A DNA stretch of 64,000 nucleotides from contig JAJPHL010000033.1 in assembly GCA_021325275.1 (NCBI GenBank), positions 63,291-127,290 on the forward strand, read 5' to 3'. The translations under genes and the position numbers were made by a program. This DNA comes from Terriglobia bacterium. Its GTDB lineage: Bacteria > Acidobacteriota > Terriglobia > JAJPHL01. A model generated the notes under the pieces. That model was not told the origin of the DNA. It made no database searches and was given only the letters and a program-made list of their open reading frames with translations. This document shows, in pieces, positions 2,738 through 19,010 of the stretch. Positions within the stretch are counted from its first letter, which is position 1. Every line of letters begins with the position of its first letter.

Positions 2738-3028
2738 ATGGCAACGAAATCGCCCGAAGAACAGGAAGACTTTCTGCAGCATGGTCGTTTCGGCGAAGGC
2801 CAGCCGAAGGTCAGGCGACCATTGTCGCCGCTTGTAAAAGCGGCGATGGTCTGCTTCGGTCTCGCCATCGTCTCTATCGCCGTGCCGGTGCTCCTGCACA
2901 TTGGTCGAGATGACGGCTCGCCATTCTTCCTGCTCGGCGCAATATTTTGCTTCGCGCAAGGACTCGCATTCGCCATCACTGCTGGTGTTCGTGAATTGCT
3001 GAGCCGGAACAGCGGAGGCGTTCGGTAA
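2738..3028 (+). CDS. small hypothetical membrane protein (2 predicted TM)
   Basis: 96-aa ORF 3 nt after the upstream stop, with two hydrophobic stretches (AAMVCFGLAIVSIAVPVLL; FFLLGAIFCFAQGLAFAITAGV). No family recognised. Confidence 0.45.
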   Translation: MATKSPEEQEDFLQHGRFGEGQPKVRRPLSPLVKAAMVCFGLAIVSIAVPVLLHIGRDDGSPFFLLGAIFCFAQGLAFAITAGVRELLSRNSGGVR

Positions 3029-13759: not shown

Positions 13760-14338
13760 TTAGCCCTTCTTCAATTCCTCAAGGACTTGTCGCGCAACTT
13801 CACGAAGCGTCTCAAACACGCCCGTGCCTTTGTACGCCACCGCCTCAAACGTGGACTCGCCTTTGCGCACTAGTTGCGATTTCAGCTCGTCCAGCGGCAG
13901 CGCATTCGGCAAATCGCGTTTGTTGAATTGCAGCACGTACGGTACTTTCTCGAAATCGTAGCCGTGATCTTTGAGGTTCTCCTGCAAATTCTCGATCGCT
14001 TCGATATTCGCGTCCATGCGTTCTTCCTGCGAATCGGCGACAAAGACCACGCCGTCGACGCCGCGCAGGATCAACTTACGGCTGGCGTCGTAGAAAACCT
14101 GGCCGGGCACGGTGTAGAGATGGAAGCGCGTTTTGAATCCGCGCACGGTGCCGAGATCGAGGGGCAGGAAATCGAAGAACAACGTTCGATCGCTTTCGGT
14201 GGCCAGCGAGATCATCTTGCCCTTGTTGGGCGCGTTGTCGAAAATGTACTGCAAGTTGGTGGTCTTGCCGCCCAAACCGGCGCCGTAATAGACCAGCTTG
14301 CAGTTGATCTCTCGCGCGGCAAAGTTGATGAAACTCAA
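13760..14338 (-). CDS. mglA: MglA, Ras-like small GTPase (mutual gliding-motility protein A)
   Basis: Near full-length identity to Myxococcus MglA: MSFIN...[25 protein letters not shown]...[66 protein letters not shown]...[12 protein letters not shown]. No mglB (roadblock/LC7) gene on either side. Confidence 0.9.
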
Positions 14339-14543: not shown

Positions 14544-15620
14544 TTGTCTAACTTTCATATGCTCTCCCTACTCGGCGGACTCCTGTTCTTCCAGATTGCG
14601 CTGATCTCCCCGAATGCGTCGCCGAACGGCGTCGACCTTTTGCCCGCCGACATTGCCGCATGGCACGCCGCGGCCGCGCCGGAAAAATTCTCGGTCGCGC
14701 AGTTGAACGCGTTCGCCACGGCCGACAACGCCGCCGTGCTCGACGAATTGGGATTCTTCGGAGCGCAGCGCCGGCAATACACCGGAGGGAAGGACATCGT
14801 AACGGTTGAAGCGATCCGCATGAAGGACCCCAGCGCGGCGTATGGCGCGTTCACATGGTTTCGCCAAACGGGATGGCGCGAGGAAACGAACTCGTCGCAC
14901 GATCCGCGCGCGTTTCAAGCCGCCGTGGGAGCGACCGACGCGGTGCTGCAGCGCAACAGTTACGTGGTGCACATCAGCGGAGTGGCGGCCACGCATCAGC
15001 AACTGGAGGCCGCCGCCGCCGCGTTGCCGTCGTTGGAAAACGAGCCGCTGCCCGCGCTCGCCAGTCATTTGCCGGCCTCGGGACTGGTGGGCGGTTCCGT
15101 GAAATACGCGTATGGTCCACAGCTTTTCGATCGCGTGGTTCCAGGGCTTCCCGCCATGGCCATGGGATTTCACTTGGGCGCCGAGGTTGTCGCCGGCGAG
15201 TATCGTTTGCCGGGAAAATCTCCGATGACGCTGGTGTTGGTGGAATATCCCACGCCGCAAATCGCGCGGAGTCTGGAGAAGAATCTCACGTCGCAGAATC
15301 TGAACGGCGCTCACGTGAAACGCGTGGGACCTTTGCTGGCGATCGTGCCGGGCGGCGCGTCCGATGCCGACGCCGCGCGACTCATCGATCAAGTTCATTA
15401 TGAAATGGCCGGCATGTGGGACGAAAAAGTGAGCAAGATCAAGGAACCGAGCTTCGCGCAGATGATCATCAGCATCTTCGAACTGTGCGGCATCCTTCTC
15501 GTGTTCTGCGTTCTCTCGGGAGCCGCCTACGGAGGTATCCGAGTGCTTACTCGCAGTAAGAATCCCGGATACGCTTTTGAGGGCGATGCCGACTTCATTT
15601 CGCTAAAGATAAATGGTTGA
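14544..15620 (+). CDS. hypothetical exported protein with C-terminal TM anchor
   Basis: N-terminal hydrophobic signal-like segment (LSLLGGLLFFQIALISP) and C-terminal TM (IISIFELCGILLVFCVLSGAAYGGI). No family recognised. Confidence 0.55.
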   Translation: MSNFHMLSLLGGLLFFQIALISPNASPNGVDLLPADIAAWHAAAAPEKFSVAQLNAFATADNAAVLDELGFFGAQRRQYTGGKDIVTVEAIRMKDPSAAYGAFTWFRQTGWREETNSSHDPRAFQAAVGATDAVLQRNSYVVHISGVAATHQQLEAAAAALPSLENEPLPALASHLPASGLVGGSVKYAYGPQLFDRVVPGLPAMAMGFHLGAEVVAGEYRLPGKSPMTLVLVEYPTPQIARSLEKNLTSQNLNGAHVKRVGPLLAIVPGGASDADAARLIDQVHYEMAGMWDEKVSKIKEPSFAQMIISIFELCGILLVFCVLSGAAYGGIRVLTRSKNPGYAFEGDADFISLKING

Positions 15621-15770: not shown

Positions 15771-15873
15771 AAAAGTTTTAGCGGTGCATCTTTGCCGTTG
15801 AGACTATTCTCCCTGTGAATCCCCCGCCAAAGAGCGGGGGCAGAAAGCCCGCCCCCAAAGGCGGGCTTTTCTG
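15771..15873 (+). ncRNA. candidate small RNA (~100 nt) defined by promoter plus intrinsic terminator; alternatively a 3' UTR
   Basis: Predicted TSS ~15771, then two GC hairpins (cccccgccaaagagcggggg; aagcccgcccccaaaggcgggctt) ending in a T-run cttttct. No ORF longer than 27 aa. Confidence 0.25.
15821..15873. terminator. bidirectional rho-independent terminator (two adjacent GC hairpins plus T-tract)
   Basis: Stem-loops at 15821-15840 and 15845-15868 followed by TTTTCT on the + strand. It lies 14 nt past the stop of the minus-strand gene 15887..17326. Confidence 0.6.
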
Positions 15874-15886
15874 TTGGTCAATCCTT

Positions 15887-17326
15887 TTATTTGCTTTCGG
15901 TTGCGGTTGGTTCGGGCTGTACTTGCGCGTCGAATGGGACGGTTAGGACCTGGCCCTGATACCGCACCTGAACCCAGATCCGATAGGCGCCCGGTTGCGG
16001 GAATCCGTAAGGAAAGGAGACGTCCGGTGCAATCTCATTCACGCCGGCATGCATCATGCTGTGATCCCCGAACGCCATCAGTGACGCCATCGGTACCGTT
16101 CCCGATGGGTGCACGTGCGCGAAGACCGAAAGATCGCGTTTCGCAATCACGGCGTGTCCGGCCATGCCCATGTATAGTTGCGTGCTCGGCACGGGTTTGC
16201 CGCTCGCGTCGAGTAAACGGAAATCGAGCGAGTAAGGACGACGAGCAACAAGCGTGGCCGGACGATCCCAGACGAGTTGCAGTCCGTTGGGTAAGGGCGC
16301 GGCGAAAGAATCGTCGGAATCGTTCAGCGTGCCAGTCGCAGTGGCCGCGCCCGCGGGAATCTGCAACTCGCCGGCGGGCGTTTCCGGAAATCCGCTCTGA
16401 TGCACGACGTCCGCGAACACACGATAGTCGCCGGGCGGCGCGGGCGGAAGCGGCGTTTCATAGCGCGCTGGTCCCGTGCGTTTGGGATGCAAATGATAGA
16501 ACGCGTCGAAATCGGGATAGCGCACGAGGAACAAATGCATCAAGTGCCCGTGATCTTCCACAAAGTCGTCGATGCTTCGCCAATGCATGATGCTGGGATC
16601 GCGCAAGCTCACCACGAGTTTGCCGCCTTCGATCGCAGAATCGAGACGCAGCGGCTGGTAAATATGATTCGCAAAGCTCGACGCTTCGGCGCTCCACCAG
16701 GAATTGCCCAACCACACGACCGCAGCGAAGGCCACAAGCGATACGGCCATCGCAATGCGCGCTTTGCTCCGCGATCGAGCGTCGGGCGGCGCGCCGGGCG
16801 TCAACTCGGCTTCGCGCACCGCCGCGCCGACAACGTTCACCGCGCCGATCACCAGAAACATCATGAGTCCGAAGAGCAAAATGCCCATGCCGCGCGGCAT
16901 CCCCAGCACGGCGCGCGACGTGGAGGGCGTGGGCACGCTCATTACGCCTTCGCCGCGCGATCCTTTGGCGATCACGCGAACGTCATAGGATCCGGTGCCC
17001 ATGAACCAGACTTGTCCGGTGAAGTATTGCGGATCGCTCGAGGATTGCTTAAGCACGTCCGGCACCGGCGCGCCGAGTTTCTGCGTGGCGTAAGTGATCG
17101 GCTGAATCTTCAGCGACGGGATTTCGCCCGGTGCGAGTTTTCCACGCAAGTACACTTCGACTTCGGCGATCCCCGGCACGATCGCCGGCGGTCGCACGAC
17201 CACGGTCATGTTGTAGGGACCCGCTTTGCCTTCGAGGTAGACGTCGGGACTTCCCACGTGTGCTGACAGCGGAAGGCAAAAGGCAAAAGTCAAAAGGCGA
17301 AAGGCAAAAGTGCGGAAGGGCTTCAT
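15887..17326 (-). CDS. hypothetical exported His-motif-rich protein (possible metal-binding), distal gene of a two-gene operon
   Basis: Signal peptide MKPFRTFAFRLLTFAFCLPLSAHV. Conserved-looking His clusters (EDHGHLMHLF, YHLHPK, GMAGHAVIA, FAHVHPSG, HSMMHAG). One TM mid-protein. Its start overlaps the upstream gene's stop (ATG/TAA share 1 nt). Start trimmed 8 codons from the supplied ORF. Confidence 0.65.
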   Translation of the reverse strand: MKPFRTFAFRLLTFAFCLPLSAHVGSPDVYLEGKAGPYNMTVVVRPPAIVPGIAEVEVYLRGKLAPGEIPSLKIQPITYATQKLGAPVPDVLKQSSSDPQYFTGQVWFMGTGSYDVRVIAKGSRGEGVMSVPTPSTSRAVLGMPRGMGILLFGLMMFLVIGAVNVVGAAVREAELTPGAPPDARSRSKARIAMAVSLVAFAAVVWLGNSWWSAEASSFANHIYQPLRLDSAIEGGKLVVSLRDPSIMHWRSIDDFVEDHGHLMHLFLVRYPDFDAFYHLHPKRTGPARYETPLPPAPPGDYRVFADVVHQSGFPETPAGELQIPAGAATATGTLNDSDDSFAAPLPNGLQLVWDRPATLVARRPYSLDFRLLDASGKPVPSTQLYMGMAGHAVIAKRDLSVFAHVHPSGTVPMASLMAFGDHSMMHAGVNEIAPDVSFPYGFPQPGAYRIWVQVRYQGQVLTVPFDAQVQPEPTATESK

Positions 17327-18489
17327 TATCGTTGGATGCGCCGCATCCAATCTCCCCAGCCCAGCGAGGCGCGCGCGCAGATGAAACTGATTCCGAGCGC
17401 CGTGGCCATGCCGATCGCGAATTGCGCGGGCGCGTCGGGCGGGAAGAACTCATTGCGCGACATGGTGAAATCCGGCGGCAGGTAGTACGGCACGTATTTC
17501 GTACCGAAGAACCAGTTGCGCGCCGCCGGCGACATCAAGAAGTCGGCGAACGGCCACTGCACTGCGAAGAACACCGCCAGAAACGCCACCGACACCGCCA
17601 GCGCCAGCAACCACTTGTTCATCCGCTCGAAACGCTTCAGCATCACGTCGAGCAAGATGGCCGGCACGATGAACAGCAGCGGAAAGTCGGGCGGCATGAA
17701 GTAATTGATTTGCTGGTAGACCGGCCCGAGCTTCGGCTCCGCGCCGAAAAGCGGCAGGATCACCACCAGCGCGATCATCACCACCGAGTAAATCCCCGCG
17801 ACAATCGTGGCCGACCACTTGTTGCCGCAGGCGCGCGCGATGCCGGTCAACACCAGCAGCGCCGCCGGCGTCAGGACACGATAAAACAGCGACTGATGCA
17901 TCTGCGAGCGGTGATCGTTTTCCATCATCACCGTCATCAGCGCCAGGAACATCATCGCCGCGCCGTAGAGATACATCCACTCGAGCACTTGGCGCTTCGG
18001 GCCGCTGGCGCGATTCATTTCGCCCAGGATCATGATCAGCACGCCGAACTGAATCGTCTGCAATCCCAGCGCCAGCACCATGTGCGGCGGACTCAAAATT
18101 TTCACGTCGAGGCCATAGGCGTTGTGCCACCAATTGTCGAACGGCGCCGAAGTCAGCATCGCCACCGCGCCCCAAATGCACAGGAAAATTCCCAGCGGTG
18201 CGCGGAATCCCCACAACCCCACCGTGGACTCGCGCTGCGCGTCGCGCGGACCAAACGTGCGCAGCAGCGTGACCGCGCCGCCGCCGAATCCCGCGATCAC
18301 TCCGCACAAATAAATCGCCATGTGCGCGGGAGTCCAAAACGTGTCGCGGCCGATCGAGCGATGCCAGGAAATGTCCCACTGCCCGCCGAGCACCGCCGAG
18401 GTGGTGGCGATCAATCCGGCCCACAGATACCAGGGAATTGTCTCCTCGCGTTCGATCGCGAACGCGGGGTTCAAAGTCGTGGCCGCCAT
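17326..18489 (-). CDS. hypothetical polytopic integral membrane protein (about 9-10 TM), proximal gene of the operon
   Basis: 387 aa, many hydrophobic helices, Trp-rich loops (WDISWHRSIGRDTFWTPAHMAIY). Translationally coupled to the downstream His-rich protein. Confidence 0.65.
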   Translation of the reverse strand: MAATTLNPAFAIEREETIPWYLWAGLIATTSAVLGGQWDISWHRSIGRDTFWTPAHMAIYLCGVIAGFGGGAVTLLRTFGPRDAQRESTVGLWGFRAPLGIFLCIWGAVAMLTSAPFDNWWHNAYGLDVKILSPPHMVLALGLQTIQFGVLIMILGEMNRASGPKRQVLEWMYLYGAAMMFLALMTVMMENDHRSQMHQSLFYRVLTPAALLVLTGIARACGNKWSATIVAGIYSVVMIALVVILPLFGAEPKLGPVYQQINYFMPPDFPLLFIVPAILLDVMLKRFERMNKWLLALAVSVAFLAVFFAVQWPFADFLMSPAARNWFFGTKYVPYYLPPDFTMSRNEFFPPDAPAQFAIGMATALGISFICARASLGWGDWMRRIQR

Positions 18490-18589
18490 ACAAAAATTAT
18501 ACGGCTAGGGACGAAGGTGCCCTTGCAGAAACTTGATGAAATCGTGAGATAGGACTTGTGTGCTTGCAGCTCTGCCGCAACTTTACGTG

Positions 18590-18955
18590 GAGTGTTGCGG
18601 CTCCGCCGCTGTTTTGTGCGGCCTTGGGTCCACGCTCTTTTGTGGGGGCTTCATGCGGCTCCGCCGCTGCTTTGTGCGGAAAGGCTCAGCCTTTCCGGCG
18701 AACGTCAACTCCGAATTGGGCAAGGCCGCGCCTTGCCCAATCCATCGGGCGCGATTAAACTACGGGTCGGCCCGAAGATTATCGATGGTCAAGTGTACGT
18801 TTCTGGACGCGTGGCGCGCGCGACGACGAGCCCTTGGTTCCAGATCATGACCAGATCGTGTGGCGGTCGGCGGGCAAGGCGTAGCCTTGCCGAGGTGCGA
18901 GCATCTTCGGAAAGGCAAAGCCTTTCCGCACAAAAGGAGCGGCGGAGCCGCTCGC
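18590..18955. repeat. cluster of REP/MITE-like nested palindromic elements (family copies 2a-2c) filling a 520-bp intergenic region
   Basis: Contains gcggctccgccgctgttttgtgcgg, gcggctccgccgctgctttgtgcggaaaggctcagcctttccgg, the palindromes ttgggcaaggccgcgccttgcccaa and gggcaaggcgtagccttgcc, and cggaaaggcaaagcctttccgcacaaaaggagcggcggagccgc. Same motifs as at 3461-3570 and 60851-61020. Confidence 0.75.
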
Positions 18956-19010
18956 GATGCCCGGGTGTTTGCTAATAGCCTGACAAGCCGCTTCTACGGT
19001 AGCGGAGTCG

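Follow-up and report, generated by a model that had tools for sequence, protein, structure and literature searches.

Here we describe two adjacent genes, geneA and geneB, on the minus strand of a 64,000-nucleotide stretch of DNA from a Terriglobia bacterium of the phylum Acidobacteriota (GenBank assembly GCA_021325275.1, contig JAJPHL010000033.1, positions 63,291 to 127,290 of the forward strand); the whole stretch is called the window below. Both are real genes that found large unannotated protein families, and together they make up one conserved, tightly coupled two-gene unit. The four-helix copper-site core of geneA is probably a remote homologue of the core of PmoC/AmoC, the copper-site subunit of particulate methane and ammonia monooxygenases (pMMO/AMO); geneA is not a member of the monooxygenase family. 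The reading that we prefer, and hold with about even confidence by analogy with known systems, is that the pair would form a two-subunit, periplasm-facing complex of the cytoplasmic membrane that captures and transfers copper, working like CopC/CopD or YcnI/YcnJ. What appears to be new here, as far as sequence comparison goes, is a proposed envelope copper-trafficking pair from undescribed families, one of which is unexpectedly linked to the copper-site subunit of pMMO/AMO.

17326..18489, minus strand: geneA, ATG at 18489 and TAA at 17328-17326; 387 aa, polytopic membrane protein with 10 predicted helices
15887..17326, minus strand: geneB, ATG at 17326-17324 and TAA at 15889-15887; 479 aa, exported, with a membrane-hairpin anchor and three predicted periplasmic beta-sandwich domains
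17324..17328, minus strand: TAATG stop/start overlap of geneA and geneB, read directly (context cgaTAATGaag), one nucleotide shared

The start of geneB is taken at the ATG at 17326; the TTG listed at 17350 is a mechanical open reading frame (ORF) start only. The overlap of one nucleotide, to which a sequence-only reading of this DNA had drawn attention, can be read directly at 17328-17324 and implies that geneA and geneB are translationally coupled.

Sequence and profile searches of Pfam, NCBIfam and the Protein Data Bank (PDB) with geneA and geneB gave no usable match, and the homologues of both proteins are all named 'hypothetical protein' in their source records, which agrees with the earlier description of the pair as uncharacterised. 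Homologues number more than 4,500 for geneB and more than 8,000 for geneA in a database clustered at 90%, while a profile search with geneB returned 4,810 clusters at 50% identity. The geneB gene is carried by at least 565 species genomes, the best 80 of which are all Acidobacteriota. In the literature searched, neither family is described, nor is any non-monooxygenase relative of PmoC.

We examined the gene neighbourhood at the best 80 geneB loci, all from Acidobacteriota, 77 of which have room upstream of geneB. In 76 of these 77, the gene immediately 5' of geneB, in the same orientation, is a geneA homologue, and the gaps or overlaps between the two genes typically amount to a few nucleotides across the 76. 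Co-occurrence in other genomes, which the sequence-only reading had named as a test of the pair, is thus observed. Moreover, a search of plasmids by tblastn revealed a complete geneA-geneB pair in Chondrinema litorale (Bacteroidota), where it adjoins a resistance-nodulation-division (RND) efflux system. The sole locus with enough upstream room that has no geneA homologue is L072 (1-1310), whose sequence contains no Ns. On the other side of the pair, 16 of the 80 loci (L004 9442-10263, L005 9444-10268 and 14 others) encode a short-chain dehydrogenase of 272-280 aa, in the orientation of geneB and 7-33 nt after it. This gene, which the window does not have, is a possible third operon member in those lineages. 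In the closer relatives L104 (6358-7161) and L105 (4607-5590), the pair is followed by genes resembling TonB-dependent receptors (CarboxypepD_reg plus outer-membrane beta-barrel). Acidobacteria are rich in such genes, and their presence beside the pair could be due to chance.

The link to PmoC/AmoC lies in the first four helices of geneA, where two similar sets of Asp and His residues are found:

18010..18378, minus strand: PmoC/AmoC-like core of geneA, residues 38-160, from the end of helix 1 to helix 4, delimited by profile comparison
18322..18375, minus strand: Motif 1, D39-x3-H43-x12-H56 (WDISWHRSIGRDTFWTPAH), at the helix 1/2 junction, aligning to PmoC CuC Asp156/His160/His173, with Arg165
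18082..18138, minus strand: Motif 2, D118-x3-H122-x13-H136 (FDNWWHNAYGLDVKILSPPH), at the helix 3/4 junction, aligning to PmoC CuD Asn227/His231/His245

The AlphaFold2 (AF2) model of geneA (predicted local distance difference test score, pLDDT, 91.1) consists of ten long helices, and both termini are cytoplasmic by the positive-inside rule. The protein is rich in Trp (16 residues, 4.1%, of which 13 are conserved), so that its earlier portrayal as a Trp-rich protein with about ten transmembrane (TM) helices holds. Nearly all of its invariant residues are at the periplasmic face. The residues D39, H43, H56, D118, H122 and H136 are invariant among 119 homologues.

When these 119 geneA members were scanned against Pfam, AmoC (PF04896) ranked second by number of weak matches (17 of 119, best E 0.001). 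Member P0200, for example, scored 12.5 bits with residues 26-154 against profile positions 103-229 of 245; the Pfam gathering threshold is 26.7 bits, and all scores of the family are below it. The window geneA itself has no match to PF04896 at E<=1. In the profile comparisons, PmoC, PmoA and PmoB from Methylococcus capsulatus, each 100% identical to PDB chains, were used as references. With hhalign, the geneA family and PmoC aligned WDISWHRSIGRDTFWTPAHMA with QDGTWHQTIVRDTDFTPSHII at 48% identity. Diverse profiles were also built, from geneA with its Actinobacteria and Bacteroidota relatives on one side, and from PmoC with Nitrosomonas AmoC, Methylocystis PmoC and three actinobacterial HmoC on the other. 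These aligned over 111 columns (geneA 38-160 against PmoC 126-242) with a probability of 79.7% and an E-value of 1.5e-5. The score was 45.7; the best of 30 column-shuffled decoys scored 29.9, and the reversed profile 20.5. Run on geneA sequences, the hidden Markov model (HMM) of PmoC gave a median of 11.8 bits and a maximum of 17.3; the best of 720 decoys, either shuffled or reversed, reached 7.6 bits, and the best of 300 natural neighbour proteins 3.3. The reciprocal search, with the geneA HMM on PmoC, had a median of 14.9 bits, and no decoy scored above 8.5. A Foldseek search of the PDB with geneA did not recover PmoC, its best hit having a meaningless E-value of 0.27.

In both hhalign and hmmsearch, the alignment is colinear and the six CuC/CuD ligand positions are in register. 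The geneA residues D39/H43/H56 are aligned to PmoC D127/H131/H144 in the 260-aa numbering, which are Asp156/His160/His173 in the literature, and D118/H122/H136 are colinear with N198/H202/H216, that is Asn227/His231/His245, with Asp instead of Asn. Moreover, geneA R48 aligns with Arg165. In PmoC, Asp156/His160/His173 are the ligands of CuC and Asn227/His231/His245 those of CuD, while Arg165 is hydrogen-bonded to a water of the site (PMC12576850). It should be noted that the spacings of 13 and 14 between the His residues of geneA recall a cytochrome-b-like bis-haem site; this candidate was rejected, the intervening residues being a polar loop and the motif matching PmoC.

The second protein, geneB, can be divided as follows:

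17261..17326, minus strand: signal peptide of geneB, residues 1-22, from hydropathy; predicted cut LSA|H, family consensus A-x-A|H
16922..17260, minus strand: N-terminal beta-sandwich, residues 23-135, seven strands in the model, starting with His23 in HVGSPD
16670..16894, minus strand: two-helix transmembrane hairpin, residues 145-219, from hydropathy and the model
16322..16663, minus strand: C-terminal domain 1, residues 222-335, with conserved H259, H261, H264, H278, H280 and H309
15902..16321, minus strand: C-terminal domain 2, residues 336-475, with conserved M386, M388, H391, H404, H406 and M413

In the AF2 model of geneB (pLDDT 90.8), beta-sandwiches span residues 29-135, 227-323 and 340-470, and two helices span 145-172 and 183-219. 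The signal peptide that had been proposed is present, with its predicted cut before the invariant H23. The single TM helix of the earlier description is instead a two-helix hairpin (145-172, 183-219) in addition to the signal peptide. Ala precedes His23 in 190 of 205 homologues, and position -3 is A, L or V, so that His23 should be the mature N-terminus. H23, G25, P27 and D28 are invariant in homologues, H23 is the only conserved His of the N-domain, and it is a candidate mono-histidine-brace copper site, by likeness to YcnI, CopC and Ang-1.

By hhalign, C-terminal domains 1 and 2 are copies of one another (probability 91.8%, E 7.5e-7), in which H259/M386, H261/M388, H264/H391, H278/H404 and H280/H406 occupy equivalent positions. 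These ten positions, together with H309 and M413, are invariant or nearly so in geneB homologues. Conservation of the His clusters among homologues was the other test named by the sequence-only reading, which took them to suggest metal or haem coordination, and it holds for four of the five: HGHLMH (H259, H261, H264), YHLHP (H278, H280), AGHAV (H391) and HVHP (H404, H406) are conserved, whereas the His of MMHAG (H426) is kept in 3%. Two conserved His residues lie outside these clusters, namely H23, the first residue after the predicted cut, and H309. As for the ligand, a metal-handling role in the envelope is supported, with copper as the most likely metal, and haem is not: the pair contains no CxxCH motif, and the His pairs are placed at polar junctions of loops and helices.

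One line of evidence for copper comes from remote homologues, which were searched for by tblastn against plasmids. In actinobacteria, we found fusion proteins of 475-496 aa whose membrane domain is homologous to geneA (hhalign probability 99.2%, E 6e-20) and keeps both geneA motifs; it is followed by an extracytoplasmic domain (AHAHDPGQG..., weak FixH/YtkA matches) and a TM anchor. These fusions link the membrane and the extracytoplasmic kinds of part in one protein, and their C-terminal domain is weakly similar to the geneB domains (E 0.0013-0.016). The plasmid neighbours of geneA-like genes encode a multicopper oxidase, cupredoxin, DUF5134, CopZ-like HMA proteins, P-type ATPases, CsoR-type and CopY-type regulators, YHS, a four-helix-bundle copper-binding protein, CcsB, ResB and CcdA. 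On Mycobacterium chubuense NBB4 plasmid pMYCCH.01, a true hmoCAB monooxygenase operon and a geneA-like fusion are ~166 kb apart (L091 5977-7446, L099 2986-6049), and the fusion adjoins CopY-family, TetR, TlpA and CcdA genes.

A similar picture was obtained for the tandem C-terminal module of geneB, whose homologues are on 214 plasmids, 89 of them from Staphylococcus. In S. epidermidis, the genes csoR-copA-copZ are followed by a homologue of this module. On plasmid pAQZ2 of this species (L094 4875-5531), it is an unnamed 218-aa protein encoded right after csoR-copA-copZ and annotated without a signal peptide. In Hymenobacter, the homologue is fused to an HMBD domain and lies near ATPase, cupredoxin, DUF305 and RND genes; in Nostoc, it is near an ATPase, a cupredoxin, a MerR-type regulator and an HMA protein, and in Cytobacillus a multicopper oxidase is nearby. 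The homologues found in a copper context keep H259, H264, H278 and H280 as well as H391, H404 and H406.

Copper binding, contact between geneA and geneB, and the direction and purpose of transfer are all inferred from sequence, models and context. The metal is narrowed to copper by the gene context of the remote homologues, by the PmoC-type ligand sets of geneA, and by the predicted N-terminal His and the His/Met motifs of geneB. Under the preferred reading, geneB would be exported and its signal peptide cut such that His23 becomes the first residue. The two-helix hairpin would hold the protein in the membrane, with the three beta-sandwich domains displayed in the periplasm. The free amino terminus and the imidazole of His23 in the N-domain would capture Cu(II), as in YcnI and CopC, and the duplicated, distantly YtkA-like domains, His-rich then Met/His-rich, may hold or relay it. 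On geneA, two Asp-His-His sites would lie next to each other where the first four helices end on the periplasmic side, and copper could pass to them from geneB, followed by uptake or by lateral handover to membrane cuproenzymes, in a function of supply and homeostasis. In pMMO, copper is found in CuC or in CuD, never in both, and the sites are about 6 Å apart (PMC12576850); a stepwise transfer would fit this arrangement.

Several points weigh against copper transfer. A copper channel would be expected to carry a ladder of conserved Met, His or Cys through the membrane, and none is obvious in geneA; the sole characterised relatives of the geneA core are catalytic subunits, not transporters. The matches of the geneB family to YtkA are all below the Pfam threshold. 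Furthermore, no copper genes or regulators are near the pair in the 80 Acidobacteria loci, where the only recurrent neighbour, the short-chain dehydrogenase, would suit an enzyme pathway equally. This brings up a reading in which the pair would be an oxidase or monooxygenase of the membrane that depends on copper and is distantly related to pMMO/AMO: geneA would carry the active site, geneB would take the role of PmoB, and the dehydrogenase would oxidise an alcohol product. The alignment of the geneA core with PmoC, with six ligand positions and Arg165 kept, speaks for it, as do the PmoB layout of geneB (signal peptide, N-terminal His, beta-sandwich, two TM helices, further beta-sandwiches), a gene order of C-like then B-like that matches xmoCAB, and the dehydrogenase 7-33 nt downstream in 16 loci. 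Nevertheless, we regard this reading as quite unlikely. When profiles were compared, geneA against PmoA and geneB against PmoB both scored at decoy level, and no AMO or Monooxygenase_B Pfam signal was found among the 119 geneA and 96 geneB family members. GeneB as a homologue of PmoB was rejected (hhalign E 0.25, score below decoys). The N-domain of geneB does not have the second and third His of CuB, and geneB shows neither a conserved Cys nor any other sign of an electron-transfer centre. In addition, the remote homologues are found in copper-resistance islands rather than in catabolic clusters, and the pair is present in single copy in very many Acidobacteria with no metabolic neighbours, which looks more like housekeeping. 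A specific form of this idea, to which we give little credence, is that the pair would be a minimal relative of the copper membrane monooxygenases (CuMMO), that is, a new membrane copper oxidase in which a PmoC-type core is fused to six unrelated helices and accompanied by a PmoB-like subunit. It would be widespread in soil Acidobacteria and act possibly on a lipid-soluble substrate, with the dehydrogenase processing the product in some lineages; if true, it would give a clue to where the active-site subunit of pMMO/AMO came from in evolution.

Another reading, which we find unlikely, takes the pair for a copper-tolerance device, where geneB would buffer or sequester periplasmic copper and geneA would be an anchor, sensor or sink, with no net transport. 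The plasmid relatives of both proteins do stand beside efflux ATPases, CsoR/CopY repressors, multicopper oxidases and RND systems, as is typical of resistance islands, and each geneB molecule has several His/Met sites. In Acidobacteria, however, the pair is chromosomal and unlinked to efflux or regulator genes, and N-terminal His-brace proteins such as CopC and YcnI are tied mainly to copper acquisition (PMC13344008). The strict conservation of two buried-looking triads in a ten-helix protein also exceeds the needs of an anchor. Finally, the motifs could bind Ni, Zn, Fe or haem, and the module could serve that metal or a haem-based redox process, which we judge highly improbable. It is true that His-rich sites are not metal-specific, that N-terminal His proteins can bind Ni (PMC12537917), that the PmoC site binds zinc in crystals (PMC12576850), and that CorA and cation diffusion facilitator (CDF) genes are near some relatives. 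Yet the neighbours of the relatives are mainly copper-specific (CopZ, CsoR, multicopper oxidase, cupredoxin), and a Met-x-Met motif together with His is what Cu(I) sites typically show. Haem would need paired His in mid-membrane, whereas those of geneA are at polar helix ends and loops (HRSIGRDTFWTPAH); CxxCH is lacking, and the geneA motif matches PmoC residue for residue, non-ligand positions included.

The flanks of the pair carry signals that bear on its expression:

18496..18501, minus strand: TATAAT box, 6 nt 5' of the geneA ATG, a likely -10 element
15821..15869, minus strand: two tandem GC-rich hairpins directly 3' of the geneB stop, terminator-like

A TATAAT 6-7 nt before the geneA start codon is also found in the relatives L103 (about 2975-3003) and L105 (about 1895-1911), and this position suggests that the operon mRNA may be leaderless. 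In L103, the true start of geneA is probably an ATG 15 nt upstream of the called one. A sigma-70 promoter scan upstream of geneA found no promoter. Downstream, the hairpins have a folding free energy of -40.6 kcal/mol (z -4.18), and none of 200 shuffles folds equally well. The GC content falls to 0.48-0.51 downstream of the pair, compared with about 0.60, which corresponds to the AT-rich flank that had been remarked on. The repeat array placed on the other flank is likewise there, in the form of palindromic repeats at 18560-18960, within the spacer of ~520 nt upstream of geneA. They belong to palindromic families of 19-27 nt, e.g., CGGAAAGGCTCAGCCTTTCCG and GCGGCTCCGCCGC. In the syntenic relative L103, the upstream spacer is 120 nt long and free of palindromic repeats; hence, the array looks like insertions of the repetitive extragenic palindrome (REP) or miniature inverted-repeat transposable element (MITE) kind in the lineage of the window. 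A DUF6599 gene (window 14544-15620, plus strand) converges on geneB and is syntenic in L103, a close relative. Beyond it are a gene for an Arf/MglA-like small GTPase (window 13760-14338, minus strand) and a 207-aa partner ORF.

The two families are large and unannotated in one of the most abundant soil phyla, and they have relatives on copper-resistance plasmids of Staphylococcus, actinobacteria and cyanobacteria. With copper assigned as their metal, both would have a working annotation, and the membrane partners of periplasmic copper-binding proteins, namely CopD and the P-type ATPases, would be joined by a third type. The Staphylococcus protein of 218 aa, itself uncharacterised, belongs to a copper operon with a wide clinical distribution. 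In the literature searched, no relative of the pMMO/AMO copper-site subunit is on record beyond the monooxygenases themselves, and the PmoC link would be the first sign of one. It would offer an independent natural test of the paired roles of CuC and CuD, namely copper movement between the sites or catalysis there, with consequences for the long-debated active site of pMMO and for the question of the enzyme's origin.

Compared with known systems, geneA resembles PmoC/AmoC in that the unit helix/(D or N)xxxH/loop/H/helix occurs twice, with the six CuC/CuD positions as well as Arg165, Asp166 and Thr167 in register, in a colinear profile alignment over about 110-160 columns, and with the sites on the periplasmic side by the positive-inside rule. 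It differs in that the first two PmoC helices are missing, six further helices have no known relative, the scores are under the Pfam threshold, and Asp replaces Asn at CuD. Unlike in xmoCAB, no PmoA or PmoB gene is beside geneA in the 80 loci. The likeness of geneB to PmoB/AmoB (PF04744), whose domain layout was taken from PMC12576850, is one of topology only: signal peptide, mature N-terminal His, beta-sandwich, two TM helices and periplasmic beta-sandwich, encoded after a C-like gene. In contrast to PmoB/AmoB, the N-domain has no HxH pair (the second and third His of CuB), a third domain is added, and profile similarity is lacking.

With YtkA/CtaK and FixH, the geneB family shares weak Pfam matches, which also occur in its relatives, a membrane-anchored and extracytoplasmic placement of the domains (from the model), and the copper context of the relatives. 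Matches to YtkA-like PF13115 were given by 12 of 96 geneB members, weakly (best E 2.8e-4), and the relatives of the module in copper operons reach 21.6-22.2 bits; all are below the threshold of 25.9 bits. Neither the domains of the window geneB nor the family consensus match, and a YtkA assignment of geneB was rejected. To our knowledge, the YtkA/CtaK and FixH families have not been described as having the tandem H...H...HxHP motif set.

The CopC/CopD-like families that the sequence-only reading had singled out for an HMM check turned out to be analogues rather than relatives. Only 2 of 96 geneB members match CopC (PF04234), at E>=0.063, and none matches DUF1775 (YcnI). CopD (PF05425) is not among the matches of the window geneA, nor among the 25 most frequent of the 57 families matched at E<=1 by the 119 members. 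The pair is without sequence relation to CopC, CopD and DUF1775; its membrane subunit is PmoC-like instead, the periplasmic parts are on a separate hairpin-anchored protein, and the YtkA-like domains are duplicated and highly divergent. Domains of the CopC, CopD and YtkA kinds are all present in YcnJ, and YtkA/CtaK has a part in the assembly of CuA (PMC13344008). In Bacillus subtilis, YcnJ and YcnI bring together a beta-sandwich with an N-terminal His, a YtkA-type domain and a His-bearing membrane protein for the supply of copper to haem-copper oxidases (PMC13344008), and mono-His-brace proteins attached to permeases exist (PMC12537917). It is to YcnJ/YcnI and CopC/CopD that the pair compares most directly in its parts: an extracytoplasmic beta-sandwich with a predicted N-terminal His, a polytopic membrane protein with His residues that would be essential, YtkA-type domains within the system, and relatives in copper operons.

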